DNA of 64,000 nucleotides from Candidatus Nomurabacteria bacterium (GCA_020632135.1 JACKGC010000001.1:52241-116240), one strand, 5' to 3'; positions 6,422 through 55,201 are shown, counted from the stretch's first letter. Program-made: numbers and translations. Notes: a model not told the origin generated them from the sequence alone.

Positions 6422-7683
6422 TTACCGAGTGACCAATTACCCCACCGCGTTTCTTCGACCACCCGCCAAGACTGATCTCGACTCTCGCGTGACGGCCGGC
6501 GTGACTCAGGTTGCGGAGCCGGATCATCATCTTTGGTGAGGTCATCAGAGTCACTGTCCTCTAAGTCATCACCATCACTCCCCTCATCGTCGTTGTCGGG
6601 GTCAGACTGATTATCGTCACCTGGCCGATATTGGTTGTCTGCTTCGCAATACAGCGTGCCCCAATCCAAATGACGGTCTTCGATAGTTATCGTTGTCACG
6701 AAACCGTTTCCACTCTCACACTGCCCGTACCAGCCGATGCGCCAGTTAGGTTTCTCGAAGCCCTCAGGTACCAGCTCCTCAATGGTGTATGTTCCCGGCG
6801 AGAGTGGTGTAAAGCTGTCGTGCGGTGCGATGATATCGGTGTCTTCGCCGGTGATCCGGTACGAGAAGTCAGACAGAGCAAAGCCAAGATCCACCCCACT
6901 GATCTGCTTATTGAGGTACAGATCTACCGTCGGTTCCTCACACCGATAATTGGTATAACTCGTCGCTTCAACCGCCCGCAAGGACACATCCACGGTGAAT
7001 GAGTCGGTTTGATATTCATTACCGAGCGTGGTGGCATCACACGCGACAGCGCCCGTCGCCAAGTCAACGTCCAGATCGCCGGCGCACCAGAGCATACCGA
7101 CGTAGTACGTTTCCCCAGGCTGAAATGCTTCTTGCGTGGTGGTGTCAGACAATGGATAGGTAGTGTCGTTAAGGACCACGACGGCCGCTTCCGGCGTCGC
7201 ACCAAACAGCGGCGTTTCACCAACCTCAAAAACATTGTCGCCATCATCATGCCAAGCGAAAAATTCCACGCCACCTGATAACTCCCCTCCCGCTAGCACA
7301 TCAACCAGTGATTCAGGTTCATTAGTTCCATTTTCTTCATCCACTAAATTGAGGAAGTCGAGACAAACGTAGGCTGGGTTTTTTTTCAGATGCACACTGA
7401 TGGTATTAAGACCAGTGTCCCCCGGCTTGATATCGTCAAAGTCGAAGAATTTATCCACCCCCGGGACAAGGTCTTTTAGTTCCCAAGACAGATCGGCTTG
7501 ATGATCGCCGTTGTAGATACTGTAACTGTCTATGGTTAGCTCAATTCCTTCACCACTGGAGTTATTGGCAAAGGTAGCGCCAACCGGTTCTCCCATAAAA
7601 ACCACCACTCCAACCAGCAATACAAAAACCGTGATCAAACCGATTTTTATTGAACGCCGGTGGATAAAACTCATAAGGAACAA
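6409..7683 (-). CDS. secreted TasA/camelysin-related protein with SpaA-like (prealbumin-fold) domain
   Basis: Signal anchor. The segment FFDFDDIKPGDTGLNTISVHLKKNPAYVC is paralogous to the two upstream proteins. Overlaps the next gene by 13 nt. Confidence 0.6.
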   Translation of the reverse strand: MFLMSFIHRRSIKIGLITVFVLLVGVVVFMGEPVGATFANNSSGEGIELTIDSYSIYNGDHQADLSWELKDLVPGVDKFFDFDDIKPGDTGLNTISVHLKKNPAYVCLDFLNLVDEENGTNEPESLVDVLAGGELSGGVEFFAWHDDGDNVFEVGETPLFGATPEAAVVVLNDTTYPLSDTTTQEAFQPGETYYVGMLWCAGDLDVDLATGAVACDATTLGNEYQTDSFTVDVSLRAVEATSYTNYRCEEPTVDLYLNKQISGVDLGFALSDFSYRITGEDTDIIAPHDSFTPLSPGTYTIEELVPEGFEKPNWRIGWYGQCESGNGFVTTITIEDRHLDWGTLYCEADNQYRPGDDNQSDPDNDDEGSDGDDLEDSDSDDLTKDDDPAPQPESRRPSRESRDQSWRVVEETRWGNWSLGNWRR

Positions 7684-26525: not shown

Positions 26526-26606
26526 ACGCTTATTATAGCAAAGTGAGGCGTAGAAATGGGCGAATTATGCTACAGTGATGACGCTCGTCCCCTTTGTGTC
26601 GAGCTT

Positions 26607-27048
26607 GCCCTCGTAGTTCAATGGATAGAACGACTCCGTCCTAAGGAGGAAATCTGGGCTGAAACAGTCTGGGGGACTGTTTCAGAAGGTTGACTGGTAT
26701 TTTATGACGCAAGGAAATAAAATACCGACAACCTGTACTGATCCTGTAAGGATCGATTCCTCAGGGATCGAACCCAGCAACATTACAATTTAAGACGTAT
26801 TGCCCTCGTAGTTCAATGGATAGAACGACTCCGTCCTAAGGAGAAAATCTGGGCTGAAACAGTCTGGGGGACTGTTTCAGAAGGTTGACTGGTATTTTAT
26901 GACGCAAGGAAATAAAATACCGACAACCTGTACTGATCCTGTAAGGATCGATTCCTCAGGGATCGAACCCAGCAACATTACAATTTAAGACGTATTGCCC
27001 TCGTAGTTCAATGGATAGAACGACTCCGTCCTAAGGAGAAAATCTGGG
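26607..27048 (+). repeat. 195-bp tandem repeat x2.27; each unit starts with tRNA-Arg positions 1-52
   Basis: Units 26607-26801 and 26802-26996 differ at 1 nt. The third start (26997) is the intact tRNA. Copies diverge exactly after the 5' T-stem strand ctggg. Confidence 0.9.
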
Positions 27049-27071
27049 TTCGATTCCTGGTGAGGGCACCA
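26997..27071 (+). tRNA. tRNA-Arg (anticodon CCU) with encoded CCA
   Basis: Hand-folded. Acceptor gccctcg/tgagggc, D arm gttc-aatggata-gaac, anticodon loop gtCCTaa, T arm ctggg-ttcgatt-cctgg (two G-U pairs), then A-CCA. Confidence 0.85.
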
Positions 27072-28560
27072 TAATCAAACGTTCGGTCTTTGAACCGACA
27101 CTCGCATGGGCGGCGCGAAGCGCCGCCCATGCTGACAGTGGCTCTGCAGAGCCACATTCCAAGGCAGGTGCCACCACCGCGCAGGCGCGGAGGTGGAGGT
27201 TCGAGCCAAAGATTTCTTTGGCGACAACTTTTTTCTCAAAAAGGTTGTCCGCGGTGGCGATTTGCGCAAGGTTTTGCGCCTCGTTTATCCATTTCTCAAA
27301 CGGTTCGAGCCAGTTAAGGTGGGCGCTAGAATAGTTGCTGATTTTAGTTTGGAGCGACTGCTTTTCAGACAGTAGCATAGCTTTCTTTTCAAGATAAGTT
27401 TCTCTTTCAATATCCTGTTCCAAATACCCATCAAGCAGTCGCGACAACTTCTCGTTTACTACCTCAAGTTCCTTTTGTGCAGCGTCCACGCCCACCTTGG
27501 CAGTCTGGGATATATTTTTCTTGTCTTCAGCGAGCATCTGATTCAGTCGCTTGGCCCAGACTGCCGGCAAAGCCATGTCAGAGAGGAGAACCGAAAGTTG
27601 TTCATCAAGTGACTCCTCACGCACGTATGGTTCATGACAGTTCCCACGCTTCTTGGTACAGCGATAGTATGTGTGACCTTTCTGCACTTCAGCGGTGATG
27701 CCCATAGAACACGAACCACACGTGAGTAGTCCACAAAAGGCTTTCGGTTCGTTCTTGGGTTTGCGCTTAGGTTTGCCGCGGTCTTTCAATATCTCTTGGA
27801 CTCTATCAAACAGTGGCTTTGCGATAACTGGCTCGTGCTTGCCTTCGTATAACTCACCTCCATATCTAAACAGCCCAACATAGAACGGATTGGAGAGGAT
27901 AAACGAGATTCTGTCTCGATGGAGACGATTGCCGTGTTTGGTTGTGATACTGTGGGTAGCCAAAAAGTCTGCTATATCTGCCAACCGGCTCTCGTTCTTG
28001 GCGTATAACTCAAACGCTTCGCAAATGATTGGTGCTTTGCGCTTGTCTTGTACCACCGTCTTGGTACGGACATCGTTAATGTATCCGATGGGTGCAAGCG
28101 CCGGATACTCGCCACGGCGGACTTTTTGGCGGAGTCCACGCTTGGTGTTCTCGGCTAAGGAGTCAACGTAGTATTTGCTTTGCCCAAAGGCGATGCTGAG
28201 CATGAATTTTCCTTGAGAAGTGTTCTCAAACCAAAAGGTTGGAAATTTGAGCATCGCCAAACGCCCGCTATCGAGGTGGTATATCACCTGTCCGCCGTCA
28301 ACTGAATTGCGCGCTAGCCGGTCGGGATGCCAGGCCAAAATCCCTTGTGCATCACCAGCCTCCAGACGTTTCATCATCTCACTGAAGATTGGCCGGCCTG
28401 GGGTTTTGGCCGACTTTTTCTCGATAAAGGTATCGACTATCTCTAGTCCTTCATTCCTTGCAAACGAGCGCAATTCAGTGACTTGAGCTTCAATAGAAAG
28501 TACTTGTTTGTCTTCAACGTCGGTACTTTTGCGGGCGTATAAAAAGAATTTGTTTTCCAT
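27031..28560 (-). CDS. large serine recombinase (resolvase N-domain + recombinase domain + zinc ribbon + coiled coil)
   Basis: YARKSTDVEDKQVLSIEAQ catalytic region, HPDRLARN, CGLLTCGSCSMGITAE...YYRC zinc ribbon. The last ~58 codons run through the 138-bp IR and into the tRNA. Confidence 0.88.
   Translation of the reverse strand: MENKFFLYARKSTDVEDKQVLSIEAQVTELRSFARNEGLEIVDTFIEKKSAKTPGRPIFSEMMKRLEAGDAQGILAWHPDRLARNSVDGGQVIYHLDSGRLAMLKFPTFWFENTSQGKFMLSIAFGQSKYYVDSLAENTKRGLRQKVRRGEYPALAPIGYINDVRTKTVVQDKRKAPIICEAFELYAKNESRLADIADFLATHSITTKHGNRLHRDRISFILSNPFYVGLFRYGGELYEGKHEPVIAKPLFDRVQEILKDRGKPKRKPKNEPKAFCGLLTCGSCSMGITAEVQKGHTYYRCTKKRGNCHEPYVREESLDEQLSVLLSDMALPAVWAKRLNQMLAEDKKNISQTAKVGVDAAQKELEVVNEKLSRLLDGYLEQDIERETYLEKKAMLLSEKQSLQTKISNYSSAHLNWLEPFEKWINEAQNLAQIATADNLFEKKVVAKEIFGSNLHLRACAVVAPALECGSAEPLSAWAALRAAHASVGSKTERLIMVPSPGIEPRFSP
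27067..27204. repeat. IR-A left copy (138 bp, perfect)
   Basis: Exact reverse complement of 28750-28887, checked base by base. GC-rich, with nested palindromes (catgggcggcgc..gcgccgcccatg, gtggctctgcagagccac). Confidence 0.95.
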
Positions 28561-28749
28561 GTACTAAAGGAACTTAAAAAGCAGAAGTGGCTATTTTGGT
28601 GTTGAAATCCTAACGTAATGCTAGAAAGCCAAAATAGCCACTTCTGCTCACATTACTAATAACGGATTTCAACAGGTACAGTGTACCACTAAAAAGAATT
28701 TTTAGTGGGCAAAGCAACTACGTCGAGACAGAATAAAATCGCCACCGCG

Positions 28750-28887
28750 TCGAACCTCCACCTCCGCGCCTGCGCGGTGGTGGCACCTGCCTTGGAATGT
28801 GGCTCTGCAGAGCCACTGTCAGCATGGGCGGCGCTTCGCGCCGCCCATGCGAGTGTCGGTTCAAAGACCGAACGTTTGATTATGGTG
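28750..28887. repeat. IR-A right copy (138 bp, perfect)
   Basis: Exact reverse complement of 27067-27204. Confidence 0.95.
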
Positions 28888-29122
28888 TCATTATACAACG
28901 CAGCTCGAACTTACTTCCAAACGAAGTTTGGATGAAACAATCTGCAACGCGCGGAGCGCGTGGTGGCTTGGTACTTCCACGTACGCATTGGGGCGCACAG
29001 TGACGCGCCTCGGGGAGCGCTCGTCCCTCGCGCGCAGCAAACCCAAAAAATTTCCTTACCATTTGAAAAAGCGGAAGGGGGTGCAGGGGGAAGCCGCCAA
29101 AAAGTTGAAAGGAAATTTTTGG
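28881..29122. repeat. IR-B left copy (242 bp, perfect)
   Basis: Exact reverse complement of 33586-33827, checked base by base. Shares the 7-nt tatggtg with IR-A. Confidence 0.95.
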
Positions 29123-29168
29123 GTGTTGTGAATTTTCTGTAAAGATTCTGTTGCTTTGAATTCGAAAT

Positions 29169-29843
29169 TTACTCCTTTGTAATCAAACCATCTTCCATCC
29201 AAAAAACACGATTACAATATTTTGCGTAATCTTGTTCATGAGTAACCATAAGAATGGTCTGTCCTTCGCTGTTAAGCGCACGCAGTACATCTATCACCTC
29301 GTCTGAAGAAGCACCATCCAAGTTAGCGGTCGGTTCGTCAGCAAACAAGACCTCGGGTCCCTTCGCAACTGCGCGCGCTATCGACACACGTTGTTGTTGA
29401 CCACCAGAAAGTTGATTTGGTCGATTTGTGTACTTACCTTCCAATCCAAACTTATCGAGCGTTCTTCGTGCAATCATCTGTGCTTCTGGTTCTTCATAAC
29501 CCAACATCATCAGTGGCAACATAACGTTCTCTTCTGCAGAAAGTTCTGGAACCAGTGCATAATCTTGAAAAATATATCCCAAGTGTTGCAACCGAAAAGA
29601 CACTCGATCTTCCTCGGTCAGCACATCTGTGGGTTGATCAAAAATGAATACTTCACCACTGGTTTGCCGATCGAGCAAACTCATTTGGTAGAAAAGGGTT
29701 GACTTACCAGCTCCAGATTTACCCATCAGTGCGACAAAATCACCCTTGTTAATGGTCAGTGATATTCCCTTAAGCACATCTATCTTAAGCTCATCCCTTC
29801 CAAAGCTCTTTACAATGTTCTGTATTTTAATAATTGGTTCCAT
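29169..29843 (-). CDS. ABC transporter ATP-binding protein (MacB/LolD-type)
   Basis: Walker A GKSGAGKST, signature LSGGQQQRVSIARA, Walker B LFADEPT. Confidence 0.9.
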   Translation of the reverse strand: MEPIIKIQNIVKSFGRDELKIDVLKGISLTINKGDFVALMGKSGAGKSTLFYQMSLLDRQTSGEVFIFDQPTDVLTEEDRVSFRLQHLGYIFQDYALVPELSAEENVMLPLMMLGYEEPEAQMIARRTLDKFGLEGKYTNRPNQLSGGQQQRVSIARAVAKGPEVLFADEPTANLDGASSDEVIDVLRALNSEGQTILMVTHEQDYAKYCNRVFWMEDGLITKE

Positions 29844-29858
29844 ACTGATACAAACAAC

Positions 29859-31199
29859 TTAACGGCCCAAAATTGAATCAAGGGTATTCTGCCTAACAAT
29901 AAGCCATGCCGGAATATATCCCGCAATCGCCGTCACGCTCACCAGCACAAGTGCTCGCAGTGTCGTCCCCCAAAATGTAGCCGCTAAAATACCGTCACTA
30001 ACTGGGAAGTCGATCGGATTTGCATTAAAGTGTGGGATAAAAATGAAAAATATCAGTATGTATCCGATAAGACTACCGACGATCGCATAGAAGAGAGACT
30101 GCATGATGTATGCTCGTTTGATTGCCTCGCCTTTAATCCCGATACCTTTTAAGATACCGATTTGTTTTCGCCTAGTCAGTGCATTGATGTATATCACCAC
30201 AAAGACCGTGATGGCAGAAACCACGACCGCTACCCCTCCTGCAGCATTGCCCAGCAAACCAAACGTCTTACTGAGATCATCAAGCACACTCGGGATCGCT
30301 TCTTCGGCTGTTTCAATTTTCGCGTACCTATCAAGGCCATATGCTTGTAGCTCGCTGACAACAACTTGTGCGTCACTATCTGAAACAAGTGATATTGCAA
30401 ATTCATTCGCCCCATCGACTGCTCCACCCACAAAATGATTCCAATCATCAGTCGTAATGTATGCGCGTTTCGCAACCTGACCGACCTTACTCTCCACAAT
30501 ACCTTTCACAATAAACTCAGTGCTCACTCCAGAACGATCTACGCCACTACCATTATCTCCACCCCCGTGCGGTCCACTTACAGCATTTTCAGCAGCACTA
30601 CCAGAAGAAAAAGAGACTTTTACTCTCGTACCAGGAGTTATGTTTTTGAGAGGTTCGAATGAATCACTAAACTCAGTGTACTCAGCAAGATTGTCTGCAC
30701 CAAGCAGGATGTACCCACTCTCTCCTTCGCGTAAATAGTCACCAACTGTCACTGAGTTGGCTAGTTTCGTTACCTTCGTTTCCGTTGCTGGATCAATGCC
30801 TACTAGTTCCAGCGATACACTATTCTCCTGTGTGTCAAAATCCCAGCGGGTTTGATAGTTGGCTTCTGCAGTCGCCTGCTTCACATACCGGGATGTATAA
30901 GACTTGACCTCAGGATGACTATTGAGTGTGGCCTGTATCGCATACGAGTTTTCGATGATCTCTTTTCCGGTGAGAGCAGAAATGAACACATCGCCGGTGT
31001 ACTGTGAGCGATTGTCCTTAAATATTCCTTCAGTTAGGCCTGTCAAAATGCCAGTGATAAGTACTAGGTTTAGGAACGTAAGTACCATGATGGCTACCGT
31101 TAGGATGTTCATCCAAATACTGGAGCGTTGTATCTGACGGAATGCCAGTTTTCGCGCAACACGCCATGTTGATTGCTTTGTTGACTGCATGGTGATCAA
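29859..31199 (-). CDS. ABC transporter permease, FtsX/MacB-type
   Basis: N-terminal TM, large periplasmic domain, C-terminal FtsX-like 3-TM bundle. Confidence 0.85.
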   Translation of the reverse strand: MITMQSTKQSTWRVARKLAFRQIQRSSIWMNILTVAIMVLTFLNLVLITGILTGLTEGIFKDNRSQYTGDVFISALTGKEIIENSYAIQATLNSHPEVKSYTSRYVKQATAEANYQTRWDFDTQENSVSLELVGIDPATETKVTKLANSVTVGDYLREGESGYILLGADNLAEYTEFSDSFEPLKNITPGTRVKVSFSSGSAAENAVSGPHGGGDNGSGVDRSGVSTEFIVKGIVESKVGQVAKRAYITTDDWNHFVGGAVDGANEFAISLVSDSDAQVVVSELQAYGLDRYAKIETAEEAIPSVLDDLSKTFGLLGNAAGGVAVVVSAITVFVVIYINALTRRKQIGILKGIGIKGEAIKRAYIMQSLFYAIVGSLIGYILIFFIFIPHFNANPIDFPVSDGILAATFWGTTLRALVLVSVTAIAGYIPAWLIVRQNTLDSILGR

Positions 31200-31205
31200 A
31201 TAATA

Positions 31206-32831
31206 TTACTCACGCACAGGTTTAATGATATATTCCCCTGCGACCAATCCGTCCGTAACTGCAAAGTAATTATCAGTACCTCGTAAACCTAGTGTGACCA
31301 CTCGTGACCCCACCTCTTGCTCTCTTTGTACGAAAACCTGCGCGCCTTCTTCCGTATAAAGAACATACGAAGCTGGCACCGCTACCACCTGAGATACCGT
31401 TTCTATATCAATACGTGCTCGTGCACTCATACCAATGCGAATACGTTTATCAGGTTCAGTAAGGGTAATAGTAGTAATGTATACAGGAACCCCGTCCACT
31501 TCTGTGTCCGTCAGCTCAATCTCAGTGACTTTCCCAGACCAAACTACCGTATCACCATACGCGTCAAGACTAATCTTCGCTCCATTACCGATGTCAATCT
31601 TGGCGATATCAATCTCAGGTACATTCATGCGTAACTCATACTCGTCACCAGAAACCAACGTCATGACAGGGGTTGCTGTCGTTATTGTTTCTCCCACAGT
31701 AAGATCAGTACTTGCTACTACTCCTGCAAACGGAGCAATAATAACCGTATCTGACAACTGCGCTTCAACCATAGACACTCGAGCTCGTGCCTGCTGCAAT
31801 GAAGCTTGCGCTTGTAGAAGATTTGCCTTCGCTTCAGCAACCGAGGCTTGGGCTTGTGCCTCCTGTGCAGTGGTGATTGCCGATTGTTCACCGATTGTTT
31901 GTTGTGCTAACAAATTTTCTAAACTCGCTTCCGCCTGTGCTACTAACTGTCTTTCTACCTCTTGCGCTTTTTCATAAGCACTAAGTTTTGTTTGATAGCT
32001 CAGACTACGTGTATTCGGCACTGGTACAACCCATTCTGAAGAGCCGTAAGAGTCTTCTTCTCCACTAACAGGCAGGGTTACAAAAAGACCATGTGTGCCC
32101 AGTTCCACCGGTAAGCCGAAGTCATCAAATGATACCGTGCCATTCTCAAGACCACTGTACCGGATTGAATAACCAGATCTGGCTCCTGATCGATAGAACT
32201 CAATTTTGTATTCACCTGATGCGTCAGAGTGATAGCTTCCTGATACAACAGGTGCTGAGAGTGTACGGTAGGCATCGGTCTGATAGGCCTGCAGGTCGTT
32301 GTTAAGCAACTCCCGATACACATTTGTCACCAAGGTGGTTTGCTCTGTTTTGGTGAGTGAAAGAGCAATGTGAGCTGAGGTAATACTTGCGTCGATTCCT
32401 CGATTTTGTGCCTGAACAAAAGACAGATTCGATTCTGCTTTTTTTAGGGTTGCCTCAGCAGCTGCTATTGTTGCCTGAGCGGCTGCCACACTACCGTTTA
32501 CTTGCGCAAGATCAGCCTCTAGGCGAGCGCTTTCAAGTCGAGCCAACACCTGCCCTGCCTCCACAGTCTCTCCCTGTACCACCTCAATGGTTGCTACTTT
32601 CCCCCCTACAGCAAAAGCAAGCTCAACTTCATCCACCGCAGTTACTTCGCCGGACAATTGAACATACTGCACAACATCCCTTTCAGTAACTAGTAGTGCT
32701 GGCTGATCGGCAACAGACTCATTGAATAATGCAATACTTGCGCCACCCAGTAGTACGATCACAACGGCAATCTTCCATTTATATACTCCTACACGCTTGA
32801 GAAACTGTCTCATAGAACTAACTCTGCTCAT
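31206..32831 (-). CDS. HlyD/MacA-like periplasmic adaptor (membrane fusion protein)
   Basis: Signal anchor, biotinyl-lipoyl-like hairpin, long coiled coil (AQA..EA repeats), beta-barrel C-terminus. Confidence 0.8.
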   Translation of the reverse strand: MSRVSSMRQFLKRVGVYKWKIAVVIVLLGGASIALFNESVADQPALLVTERDVVQYVQLSGEVTAVDEVELAFAVGGKVATIEVVQGETVEAGQVLARLESARLEADLAQVNGSVAAAQATIAAAEATLKKAESNLSFVQAQNRGIDASITSAHIALSLTKTEQTTLVTNVYRELLNNDLQAYQTDAYRTLSAPVVSGSYHSDASGEYKIEFYRSGARSGYSIRYSGLENGTVSFDDFGLPVELGTHGLFVTLPVSGEEDSYGSSEWVVPVPNTRSLSYQTKLSAYEKAQEVERQLVAQAEASLENLLAQQTIGEQSAITTAQEAQAQASVAEAKANLLQAQASLQQARARVSMVEAQLSDTVIIAPFAGVVASTDLTVGETITTATPVMTLVSGDEYELRMNVPEIDIAKIDIGNGAKISLDAYGDTVVWSGKVTEIELTDTEVDGVPVYITTITLTEPDKRIRIGMSARARIDIETVSQVVAVPASYVLYTEEGAQVFVQREQEVGSRVVTLGLRGTDNYFAVTDGLVAGEYIIKPVRE

Positions 32832-33330
32832 TATCTAATAAACTTCGCAATACAGGATTCTTTGATGCCAATAGCGACTCTCGTCGGGGGCTGTGCTGAA
32901 CTAGTATTTGCATCATCTTTTGGAGCCCATTAGAAACTTCTCGTCTGGTGCTTTTAGGTAACTCAGCAAAAACATCTTCCATTCTTTTAATTACTTCGGT
33001 TTGTACCCGAATGACCATTAGCCGGCCTTTGGGAGTAAGGGTTAGAATAGATTTGCGAGCATCACAGGCGTCCTGTTTCTTTACGATTAACTTACGCTCA
33101 ATTAAATCCTGCACTTTTCGACTAACCGATGCTTCTGAGACTAGGTTGAATAGCGCAATATCCTTTTGTGTACAAGTAGTAAGAACCGCAACAGGAAGCA
33201 ATGTTTGAAAGTCAGCCAAAGTAATGTCAAACCCTTTACTGAGCACCTGTTCAATCTCAGTATCAATTTCTGAACGCAATAACATTACAGGCATAATGAT
33301 GTGGGCGATACTGTTTGGGAATAATTTCAT
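32818..33330 (-). CDS. MarR family transcriptional regulator
   Basis: Winged-HTH pattern (TQKDIALFNLVSEASVSRKVQDLIERKLIVKKQDACDARK). 14-nt overlap with the adaptor gene. Confidence 0.8.
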   Translation of the reverse strand: MKLFPNSIAHIIMPVMLLRSEIDTEIEQVLSKGFDITLADFQTLLPVAVLTTCTQKDIALFNLVSEASVSRKVQDLIERKLIVKKQDACDARKSILTLTPKGRLMVIRVQTEVIKRMEDVFAELPKSTRREVSNGLQKMMQILVQHSPRRESLLASKNPVLRSLLDNEQS

Positions 33331-33348
33331 AGGTATAAGACTACCATA

Positions 33349-33372
33349 AGATACTTAACATGTTAAGTATCT
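33349..33372. promoter_or_regulatory. 24-bp perfect palindrome, candidate MarR operator
   Basis: AGATACTTAACATGTTAAGTATCT, 19 nt upstream of the marR-like start codon. Confidence 0.5.
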
Positions 33373-33585
33373 TTCACACAACCTCCACCAAGCAGGCCAC
33401 GCGAACGGATGTGAGCGGCCTGTGCGAGGTGGTGGCGGGTGTGTGGGTGTGGGTAGATATTCACCACTACACTCGAACGCAAAGTGTCTCGGGCACCACA
33501 AGACCGAAGAAAAGTAGGATGAAAAGCCCTCAATTCTAAATGGGGCTTTGAATGAAACTTTTTGGAGGTCGTAGTGGTGAGCAAG

Positions 33586-33827
33586 CCAAAAATTTCCTTT
33601 CAACTTTTTGGCGGCTTCCCCCTGCACCCCCTTCCGCTTTTTCAAATGGTAAGGAAATTTTTTGGGTTTGCTGCGCGCGAGGGACGAGCGCTCCCCGAGG
33701 CGCGTCACTGTGCGCCCCAATGCGTACGTGGAAGTACCAAGCCACCACGCGCTCCGCGCGTTGCAGATTGTTTCATCCAAACTTCGTTTGGAAGTAAGTT
33801 CGAGCTGCGTTGTATAATGACACCATA
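33586..33827. repeat. IR-B right copy (242 bp, perfect)
   Basis: Exact reverse complement of 28881-29122. Confidence 0.95.
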
Positions 33828-54563: not shown

Positions 54564-55055
54564 TTATTCATCCAGATAGCTATCGAAGTACACTGCATGA
54601 CAGGTATATCCACCTGGGTTCTTCTCTAGATAATCCTGATGATAGTCTTCTGCCGGCCAAAAGCGAGTCAACGGCTCGAGTGTGGTCACTACTTGGTCAG
54701 ACCAACGGCCGGATTCATTGACGATCTCGATCATTTCCTCGGCGATCTGCTTCTCTTCGTCGGTAGAGTAAAAGATCGCCGACCGATACGATGTCCCATG
54801 GTCATTCCCTTGTTGATTCAGTGTCGTGGGGTTGTGGATCTGAAAAAAGAAATCGAGAATATGTTGGTAGTCGATCTGCTCTGGATCATATTCGATCTCC
54901 ACCGCTTCGGCGTGGCCGGGGTGGTGCTCGTAGGTCGGATTATCGTTTTCACCGCCAGTGTAGCCAGCTTCTGTATCTACAATACCGGGCAGAGTACGGA
55001 TAAGATCTTCTAGTCCCCAGAAACAACCACCTGCGATGACAGCTTTTTTCAACAT
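54564..55055 (-). CDS. msrA: peptide-methionine (S)-S-oxide reductase MsrA
   Basis: AGGCFWG active site, HDPT-like [34 protein letters not shown] upstream. Confidence 0.92.
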
Positions 55056-55063
55056 ATATTTTC

Positions 55064-55201
55064 TTACTCCTTACAGGAGCTGTACACCTTGTCGCTATTT
55101 TGTTTCCTGGCGTCACAAAATAGCTGGCAAGGTCTTGCGAAAGCCTCCCAGGCTTTCTCACCCCAGAAACAACCACCTGCGATGACAGCTTTTTTGGTCA
55201 T
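55064..55201 (-). pseudogene. duplicated msrA 5' fragment fused to unrelated sequence (45-codon ORF)
   Basis: 55161-55195 is identical to 55015-55049 (35 nt). Encodes [14 protein letters not shown] and then diverges. Its stop overlaps the SD of the real msrA. Confidence 0.5.

Follow-up and report, generated by a model that had tools for sequence, protein, structure and literature searches.

A 64,000-nucleotide stretch from Candidatus Nomurabacteria bacterium (GCA_020632135.1, JACKGC010000001.1:52241-116240; the whole stretch is called the window below) contains, directly behind a tRNA-Arg gene, a recombinase gene and an efflux cassette, each enclosed by its own pair of inverted repeats (IRs). 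This raises the question of what kind of element has such a doubly mirrored layout. The segment 27067-33827 is, as family comparisons show, a mobile element of 6.76 kb at the end of the tRNA-Arg gene, and probably the integrated copy of a small element driven by its large serine recombinase (LSR). It is one of a very large family in Patescibacteria, whose members insert at the extreme 3' end of tRNA genes and have a second, inverted attachment site inside.

Inverted repeats, recombinase and cargo of the tRNA-Arg element

IR-A (27067-27204 and 28750-28887) consists of two 138-nt arms separated by 1545 nt, and IR-B (28881-29122 and 33586-33827) of two 242-nt arms separated by 4463 nt. Both pairs are 100% complementary, which confirms the perfect repeats and the 7-bp core that an earlier note on this DNA had read from the sequence; its division of the segment into two IR-bracketed modules holds for the window and for many of the related loci described below. 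The two IRs overlap by 7 bp (TATGGTG, 28881-28887). The other strand of this overlap, CACCATA, forms a direct repeat at 27067-27073 and 33821-33827 that bounds the element. With an intact tRNA-Arg ending in the core and the direct repeat starting at 27067 and 33821, the locus is bounded in the manner of a tRNA-integrated island. All element genes lie on the minus strand and encode the LSR, an ABC transporter ATPase, an FtsX permease, an HlyD/MFP adaptor and a MarR regulator, the last four making up a MacAB-like efflux cassette. The GC content of the cargo (43-47%) is below that of the flanks (49-55%), as the earlier note had supposed. The individual features are listed here, with S1 to S3 denoting the three core-containing junctions.

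26997-27071, plus strand: tRNA-Arg(CCT), the integration target (ARAGORN; Rfam tRNA, 54 bits), with T-loop GTTCGA at 27048-27053, 19 nt ahead of the core
27067-27073, plus strand: core copy 1, CACCATA; S1, the attL-type junction between tRNA half-site and arm A half-site
27067-27204: outer arm of IR-A (A), which at the same time is the 3' coding end of the recombinase gene (about 46 codons); P'-type half-site and GC-rich hairpins, ending at the invariant GAGGTTCGA (codons FGSNL)
27031-28560, minus strand: open reading frame (ORF) of the large serine recombinase, 509 aa (Pfam PF00239, PF07508, PF13408)
28580-28648, minus strand: leader inverted repeat with a perfect 20-bp stem, a 29-nt loop and a T-run; 18 nt separate its end from the start codon of the recombinase
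28750-28887: inner arm of IR-A (A'), repeating the 3' end of the recombinase gene in inverted orientation ahead of its promoter region
28855-28915, minus strand: S2, the complete, inverted internal attP-type site, with core TATGGTG at 28881-28887
28903-28910: motif GCTCGAAC in S2, resembling a zinc-ribbon-domain (ZD) motif; it is GTTCGAGC on the other strand, starting 23 nt before the core
28881-29122: inner arm of IR-B (B), a hairpin chain with a GGCGG..CCCCC..CCGCC-type motif close to the inner end
29169-29843, minus strand: cargo ATPase of an ABC transporter (MacB/LolD-like)
29859-31199, minus strand: cargo FtsX-type permease
31206-32831, minus strand: cargo HlyD/RND_mfp periplasmic adaptor
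32818-33330, minus strand: cargo MarR-family regulator, first gene of the cassette
33586-33827: outer arm of IR-B (B'), P-type half-site with GTTCGAGC at 33798-33805
33821-33827, plus strand: core copy 3, CACCATA; S3, the attR-type junction between B' half-site and host flank

Several observations support the IRs as real structures. The arms of IR-A and IR-B have no further copies within the window and are therefore not a generic multicopy repeat, a case that the earlier note had named as one that would speak against its reading. The exact ATPase protein is present on contigs of other samples, in which the cargo forms a separate unitig that ends in inverted k-length overlaps into IR-B (141 nt for MEGAHIT at k141, 30 nt for Logan at k31). 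Such overlaps are what a true IR leaves behind in an assembly, and they come here from independent data. In homologous elements at other places the arms are imperfect (83-99% identity), and the occurrence of such arms in many loci excludes an artefact or collapse of the assembly.

The recombinase contains a PF00239 resolvase domain at residues 6-151 (E = 5e-23), followed by PF07508 (E = 6e-14) and PF13408 (Zn_ribbon_recom, E = 4e-7), and its YARKSTD motif, including R10 and S12, is invariant among 14 homologues. The nearest solved structures in the PDB are SprA and the A118 integrase, both distant (best E = 3e-10); residues 216-439 align with the C-terminal domain of the A118 integrase (4kis) and residues 52-406 with SPbeta SprA (9dxh). 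Matches to NCBIfam models stay below threshold (CcrB, 111.8 against a cut-off of 900; XisF, 74 against 375; IS607, 25 against 110). Based on its resolvase, recombinase and zinc-ribbon domains, the protein is assigned to the large serine recombinase family, and within this family it is placed outside the Ccr, XisF, TnpX and IS607 groups. The corresponding NCBI protein, MCB9812112.1, is annotated with 390 aa and without the catalytic domain, though the full 509-aa ORF is open in the window. Exact-protein look-ups returned no record for the window LSR, its NCBI version or the right-flank gene.

A family at tRNA 3' ends and its attachment sites

The layout was compared across 160 loci of Patescibacteria LSR homologues, 80 from species-representative (GTDB) genomes (set 1) and 80 from JGI metagenomes (set 2). 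IR-A brackets the LSR gene in 106 of the 126 evaluable loci (55/63 in set 1 and 51/63 in set 2), with a median length of 135 nt and a median identity of 100% (range 83-100%). A convergent tRNA gene adjoins the downstream arm or the LSR 3' end in 92/125 loci (50/65 and 42/60, respectively), and a second IR pair of 123-405 nt, which adjoins the upstream A arm and brackets 1.4-8 kb of varied cargo, was found in 25/44 (19/25 and 6/19). The two IRs overlap by 3-10 nt in most loci, L013 and L028 being exceptions. Many contigs end 250-450 nt upstream of the LSR start, where the repeat would break a short-read assembly. The adjoining tRNAs include those for Tyr, Gly, Leu, Lys, Glu, Val, Arg, Cys, Thr, Ile, Gln, Asn, Asp, His and Ser. 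Taken with the protein domains and the tRNA prediction, this family layout bears out the proposal of an LSR-driven element at the 3' end of tRNA-Arg.

Alignment of the junctions shows how the three sites of an element are composed: S1 joins a tRNA half to an A half, S2 a B' half to an A half, and S3 a B' half to the host flank. They share only CAC, CTC or GCC, sometimes extended through CCA, which gives a core of 3-10 bp in the family and 7 bp in the window; the earlier expectation that nothing but a short core is common to the three sites is thereby upheld. The dyad centre of S2 is CA, corresponding to tRNA nucleotide 72 and the discriminator, so that the core lies at tRNA nucleotides 72/73. 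The S2 consensus is AAAATAgGTTCGAgC-N3-GTtgTA-N/CaCCA-N2-At-N2-aACTtt, with GTT at positions 11-13 on both arms. In the tRNA halves, the T-loop GTTCGA starts 19 nt before the core without exception (38/38), while its mimic GTTCGAGC starts 23 nt before the core in 36 of the 45 B' (attP) halves of the elements. The T-loop motif is thus 4 bp nearer to the core in the tRNA half-site than GTTCGAGC is in attP, a displacement of the type that lets LSRs distinguish attB from attP. For the Listeria integrase, the ZD motif occupies attP positions 16-24 and lies 5 bp nearer to the centre in attB, and other pairings of att sites do not recombine (PMC3783163). Judged from the site structure, the motif offset and this published rule, S2 is assigned as a complete, bona fide attP, S1 as an attL-type and S3 as an attR-type site. 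This agrees with the earlier description of the central 373 bp as a complete attP-type site that is the inverse of the joined element ends, which site alignment and motif spacing now support. The conserved T-arm very probably serves as the distal motif recognised by the zinc-ribbon domain, and the universal conservation of this motif would explain the spread of the family over many tRNA species. One core-proximal attP sequence (L010, L011, L018, L023 and L052) is indeed found at tRNA-Gly(CCC), tRNA-Leu(TAG), tRNA-Leu(TAA) and tRNA-Ile(TAT).

In the window, CACCATA at 27067-27073 takes in the CCA of tRNA-Arg(CCT) together with its discriminator and last acceptor base, and the other two tRNA genes of the window have no encoded CCA, in line with the earlier suggestion that the element provides it. 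The native tRNA genes of several loci evidently lack an encoded CCA as well, which is supplied by the element. The DNA past S3 often opens with a terminator hairpin (L011, L028, L031, L043 and L049) or with the next tRNA gene (L026). As this is what native DNA downstream of a tRNA looks like, the whole block from A to B' is probably the insertion. The predicted attB reconstructed at tRNA-Arg reads …GGTGAGGGCACCATATACATATT…, and the predicted empty-site sequence …GGTGAGGGCACCATATACATATTCTC….

The arms themselves are structured. The 373-nt unit folds as a chain of local hairpins (z = -4.9); the arms have no match to an Rfam family, and a simple promoter and terminator scan of them gave background levels. 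In the first hairpin of the A arm (GGGCGGCGC-GAAG-GCGCCGCCC, encoding WAALRAA), all six of the predicted pairs are kept by compensatory changes among 46 aligned A arms. The A arm ends at the invariant GAGGTTCGA, whose antisense reading is the invariant FGSNL of the LSR, and B arms share a GGCGG-AAGGGGG-TGTG-GGGGGAA-CCGCC-type motif near their inner ends. This G-rich/C-rich, palindrome-like B-arm motif occurs in either orientation (window 29060-29110 and 33598-33650; L017, L019, L025, L049, L086 and others). Arms are 100, 95 and 99% identical within the elements of the window, L007 and L089, respectively, but only 81-85% between elements, which indicates concerted evolution. The identities of IR-A and IR-B covary within elements (rho 0.53, p 0.003, n = 30), as is expected if the two pairs become or stay identical in a joint process and afterwards diverge in step.

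Among the relatives, L007 from a marine metagenome has a 91% identical LSR and the order B'-CACCATA-A-LSR-A'-tRNA-Arg(GCG), with A arms that are 95% complementary; its contig begins exactly at the inner end of B. At its other end, 5 kb past the target tRNA and separated from it by host genes (RuvX, PilM-like and others), this contig carries a second B-type arm fragment (7106-7318) in direct orientation, 89% identical to the first, which may be the start of another element. L089, with an LSR of about 90% identity and inserted at tRNA-Arg(GCG) like L007, has B arms 85% identical to those of the window around an unrelated cargo of 1.46 kb. Just inside the outer B arm and upstream of the first cargo gene, a stretch of about 50 nt is 92% conserved between the two (window 33385-33435, L089 197-246), the cargos being otherwise unrelated; it may be a common promoter or regulatory segment. 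No near-identical elements were found at different tRNAs, the identity between elements in species-representative genomes being at most 89%, and recent jumps could therefore not be shown. Close relatives of the window element in the metagenome scan reach at most 67-73% identity.

The 56 cargo proteins of 21 elements include class II aminoacyl-tRNA synthetases, LeuRS, a HaeII endonuclease with a C5 methylase, several dehydrogenases, LemA, DUF2207, reverse transcriptase, rhomboid and radical SAM proteins, and others. Recurring replication, transfer or capsid genes are absent from this set, and neither the window element nor these 56 proteins of its relatives contain Rep or partition domains. A phage origin of the family was considered and rejected, with only three weak matches in IMG/VR viral contigs. 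One locus (L086, 9645-14325) has a pair of oppositely oriented LSR genes, related at 74% DNA identity and each having an IR-A of its own, which face a tRNA cluster with Gly, Pro and Leu on one strand and Arg on the other; several elements can thus share one tRNA cluster. Family-type loci also occur in metagenome-assembled genomes labelled Gammaproteobacteria, Syntrophaceae, Bdellovibrionales, Phycisphaerae or Bacteroidetes (L009, L012, L013, L024, L031, L045, L060 and others), which may reflect mis-binning or mislabelling of small contigs.

A hairpin (10-21 bp stem, 25-45 nt loop) lies just ahead of the LSR start codon in 38 of 70 family members, compared with 5 of 210 shuffled sequences, and its stem sequences differ between members. 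This leader inverted repeat is possibly an attenuator or operator, and suggests tight control of LSR expression.

Fixed polarity and a possible role of the internal attP

In all 72 evaluable family loci, the LSR gene points to the tRNA and has the cargo on its upstream side. The mirror isomer, with cargo and IR-B downstream of the LSR, was never seen (0/51 in set 1, 0/21 in set 2), and the polarity also holds in loci whose arms are imperfect or short enough for an assembler to resolve. Hence, integration invariably splits the attP copy that runs on from the LSR 3' end, and free inversion of the recombinase module, which the earlier note had considered, did not hold up. No tRNA adjoins the inner A arm in the 57 set-2 loci with IR-A; capture of tRNA-bearing DNA at the internal attP was considered and rejected, because a tRNA adjoins the inner A arm in no locus.

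The LSR ORF continues through arm A and the core into the antisense strand of the tRNA gene, where its C-terminal tail reads ...LIMV/PSPGIEPRFSP; if joined to B, the tail would read ...LIMV/SLYNAARTYFQTKFG. The two alternative tails end …LIMVPSPGIEPRFSP and …LIMVSLYNAARTYFQTKFG. At least 7999 LSR homologues were found, nearly all in Patescibacteria, and their C-termini follow the pattern …WAALRAA…ES(L)ILV-PSxGIEP, in which GIEP is the antisense translation of the tRNA T-arm and LV the antisense of (N)ACCA(G). This match to the antisense of acceptor and T-arm indicates that ORFs of the family generally read into a tRNA gene. Alternative C-terminal isoforms of the LSR were absent from the protein clusters, which contained only relatives and one truncated variant. 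A 189-aa LSR variant from another sample (P0123) diverges after residue 178. A small divergent ORF encoding the free LSR C-terminal tail, read from A' into B, was also considered and rejected: it has an ATG in 8 of 52 loci and often no start codon, and the median length of the open stretch upstream is 22 codons.

From these features, the following cycle can be proposed. The LSR would integrate a circular form by recombination of attP with attB, using the T-arm as the motif for its zinc-ribbon domain, and excision by S1 × S3 would regenerate a circle with two inverted 373-bp attP regions. As the LSR ORF crosses the attP that is split, integration would replace the last ~15 LSR codons (antisense of B') by the antisense-tRNA codons PSxGIEP. 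The favoured, though doubtful, view of the internal attP is that it would preserve the circle-type gene end and site in intact form. RecA-type inversion between the A arms, which exceed 100 bp, could rejoin the internal attP to the LSR gene; reconnecting the stored end in this way would couple the form and activity of the recombinase to the integration state, the observed orientation being the stable one. For the fixed polarity, three candidates are considered, namely selection or a ratchet acting through the tail switch, a single-stranded dumbbell, and some asymmetry between the two attP copies; the first is ranked as the most likely, with low confidence.

Several points weigh against the view that the segment is an integrated LSR-driven element of this kind. 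The search for an empty site, a circular junction and inverted isomers, proposed in the earlier note, retrieved contigs carrying flank or element genes and recovered none of the three among them, whether by protein look-ups, in contigs or in the metagenome scan, and the case for mobility of the window element thus comes only from family comparisons. Contigs that carry the left-flank gene break off at either the tRNA repeat or the boundary of IR-A. The element has no recognisable recombination directionality factor, on which LSR excision depends, and the motif shift is 4 bp instead of the 5 bp seen for the Listeria integrase. If a double-stranded circle has two identical attP copies, integration in either polarity is expected, so that 0/72 mirror isomers needs an extra assumption, be it selection, a tail switch or a strand-specific intermediate; a role of the internal attP in tail switching by inversion leaves the 120-400 bp length of the B arms unexplained. 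IR-B was not found in 13 of the 19 set-2 loci with at least 3 kb of upstream DNA, and loci without a long IR-B showed no short inverted B' half-site better than shuffled controls, except for L012 (arm beside an N gap), L047 and L051. Some elements may thus lack the second IR, or their cargo may extend past the available DNA. Finally, L051, L076 and L055 are not at a recognisable tRNA, the latter two being at non-tRNA sequences. In L051 (7433-11550), complete attP regions (A+B, 318 nt, 96.5% identical) stand on both sides of the cargo, and the recombinase 3' end adjoins a diverged B'-like half-site instead of a tRNA; this locus may be a nested or tandem insertion, or the result of recombination into the attP of another element.

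The fixed polarity would also be explained if a strand-specific single-stranded DNA (ssDNA) circle folded into a dumbbell, in which the paired 373-nt copies formed the only double-stranded, functional attP and recombined with the tRNA attB in a CTX-phage-like manner, replication and resolution then giving the observed layout. This course would also account for the two complete inverted attP regions, the near-perfect arm identity and the co-decay of both IR pairs, and its product, derived on paper, is exactly T-core-A-R-A'-core'-B-C-B'-core-F. It is nevertheless considered unlikely, since no cargo contains a gene for a rolling-circle Rep, a relaxase or an ssDNA phage protein. Because serine recombinases make concerted double-strand breaks, integration of the dumbbell would moreover first give loop-capped chromosome ends and then need an attL × attR step, and the use of folded ssDNA is not known for any serine recombinase.

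The earlier note had compared the element with the yeast 2-micron plasmid, i.e., an excised circle with equivalent inverted copies of attP and IR, in which both segments flip freely and either attP can integrate. The geometry is exactly that of a circle in which a 373-bp IR keeps a recombinase arm and a cargo arm apart; the repeat arms have a length that suffices for homologous recombination, and the cargo of different elements is coded now on the strand of the recombinase (7374 aa), now on the opposite one (9576 aa), although cargo orientation may be arbitrary in short-read assemblies with long, perfect B arms. The comparison fails on the uniform recombinase polarity, which includes loci with resolvable orientation, on the lack of a replication origin or Rep genes for amplification to act on, and on the enzyme, which is a serine and not a tyrosine recombinase. 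In addition, LSRs are not known to recombine attP × attP or attL × attP (PMC3783163). As a whole, the 2-micron-like model is quite improbable.

A domesticated inversion switch of the inverton or shufflon type, in which the recombinase would invert segments to vary expression and mobility would be lost, could be suspected from IRs that flank gene segments next to a serine recombinase, but is very improbable given an LSR with recombinase domain, ZD and coiled-coil architecture instead of a small Hin/Gin-type invertase, promoters and whole operons inside the segments, so that inversion would not switch expression, a family at many tRNAs with unrelated cargo, and a recombinase segment seen in one orientation only. 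Two separate terminal-IR elements, a recombinase unit and a cargo unit placed side by side by chance, or a mis-joined assembly are hardly credible: each module does have a perfect terminal IR of its own, with the same 7 bp at the end, and short-read assemblers can mis-join at repeats, but the abutting layout with 3-10 bp overlap recurs in 25 independent loci from various studies and assemblers, many arms are imperfect, no other transposase accompanies the LSR, the A and B half-sites add up to a dyad-symmetric attP, and IR-B is reproduced by independent assemblies.

Relation to known elements and implications

The integrated LSR-driven element shares with the large serine integrases (A118/LI, SPbeta SprA, phiC31, Bxb1) the resolvase catalytic, recombinase and zinc-ribbon domains, the latter with a putative coiled-coil region, as well as a dyad-symmetric attP with a recombinase-domain-type motif (GTT at 11-13 on both arms), a distal motif at ~17-24 that lies nearer to the centre in attB, and a very short core. 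Unlike these integrases, it targets tRNA 3' ends with the universal T-loop as distal motif and a 4-bp shift, its recombinase ORF runs across attP, and it has a second complete, inverted attP with arms of 100-400 bp; the elements of the family are also tiny (3-10 kb), with no recombination directionality factor, phage or conjugation genes found. In its domains and att-site grammar, the element nonetheless appears to work like a serine-integrase integrative element.

Tn4451/Tn5397 (TnpX/TndX) and the staphylococcal cassette chromosome SCC (CcrAB/CcrC) are likewise small to medium-sized LSR-moved elements without phage functions that excise to a non-replicating circle, and CcrB is the best NCBIfam match of the LSR, far under the cut-off. 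Their targets are GA dinucleotide sites or rlmH rather than tRNA 3' ends, and they have neither an internal inverted attP nor long IRs around the recombinase. In integration-dependent switches with an attP inside a gene, such as the integration-dependent immunity of mycobacteriophages, integration changes the C-terminus of a protein. The element resembles them in that an ORF crosses attP, but here this ORF is that of the recombinase itself. Tycheposons and other tRNA-integrating islands are similar in being small cargo elements at tRNA genes in streamlined genomes. Tycheposons differ by duplicating a tRNA 3' segment, and no double-IR layout has been described for them. Of 937 tycheposons and cryptic elements, 910 use tyrosine recombinases, and many carry replication genes (bioRxiv 10.1101/2020.12.28.424599).

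More formal resemblances concern systems with other enzymes. As in the 2-micron plasmid (Flp/FRT), the circle on paper has a long, perfect IR that holds the recombination site and separates the recombinase segment from a second unique segment; Flp, in contrast, is a tyrosine recombinase, and that plasmid replicates autonomously and exists as two equimolar isomers, whereas the window element has a serine enzyme and no replication genes and is found integrated in one polarity. The folded ssDNA attP of CTX phage and integron attC need two inverted site copies and fix the orientation of integration, but they have short, imperfect repeats and serve tyrosine recombinases, which act on folded ssDNA by exchange of a single pair of strands, as opposed to the serine enzyme here. 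Hin/Gin invertons use a small serine invertase, and shufflons a tyrosine recombinase, with short IR sites around a promoter or part of a gene; the window element instead has a 509-aa LSR and arms of 138 and 242 bp around whole genes with their own upstream regions. The element thus does not have the defining properties of a 2-micron-type plasmid or of an inverton.

A different repeat was observed near the target. Upstream of the intact tRNA-Arg (window 26605-26994), two tandem 195-nt units each consist of the first 54 nt of the tRNA and a 141-nt spacer; metagenome contig L091 has one such unit fewer. At 55015-55195, the first ~41 nt of an MsrA-like gene, start codon included, are duplicated around a spacer of ~111 nt. 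The spacers at both places share a hairpin motif of ~55 nt with compensatory stem changes (TATTTTNTGACGCNAGGAAANAAAATA; three matches in the window, none expected). These duplications look like the work of a miniature element, unrelated to the LSR arms, whose insertion leaves a second copy of the target's 5' end.

In the searched literature, which was incomplete so that a prior description is possible, neither LSR elements with an internal inverted attP nor T-loop-targeting LSRs in Patescibacteria are described. If the proposed reading is true, the family, with its thousands of recombinase homologues, would represent a class of Patescibacteria mobile elements that is very abundant and, it seems, so far undescribed. 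Its hundreds of natural LSR/attP/attB triplets, with a readable site grammar and the T-loop as distal motif, would be useful for understanding how serine integrases are retargeted and as a source of orthogonal integrases. The interest of the family rests on its size, on this readable site code and on the unexplained internal attP with fixed polarity. The current model of serine-integrase elements predicts neither the conservation of an inverted attP inside the element nor a recombinase gene that extends across its own site with fixed polarity; both features suggest a level of control that has gone unrecognised, or an intermediate of an unusual kind. For the Patescibacteria, whose genomes have few other known vehicles of gene transfer, such elements would shuttle small cargos between tRNA genes, among them efflux pumps, restriction-modification systems, aminoacyl-tRNA synthetases and dehydrogenases.

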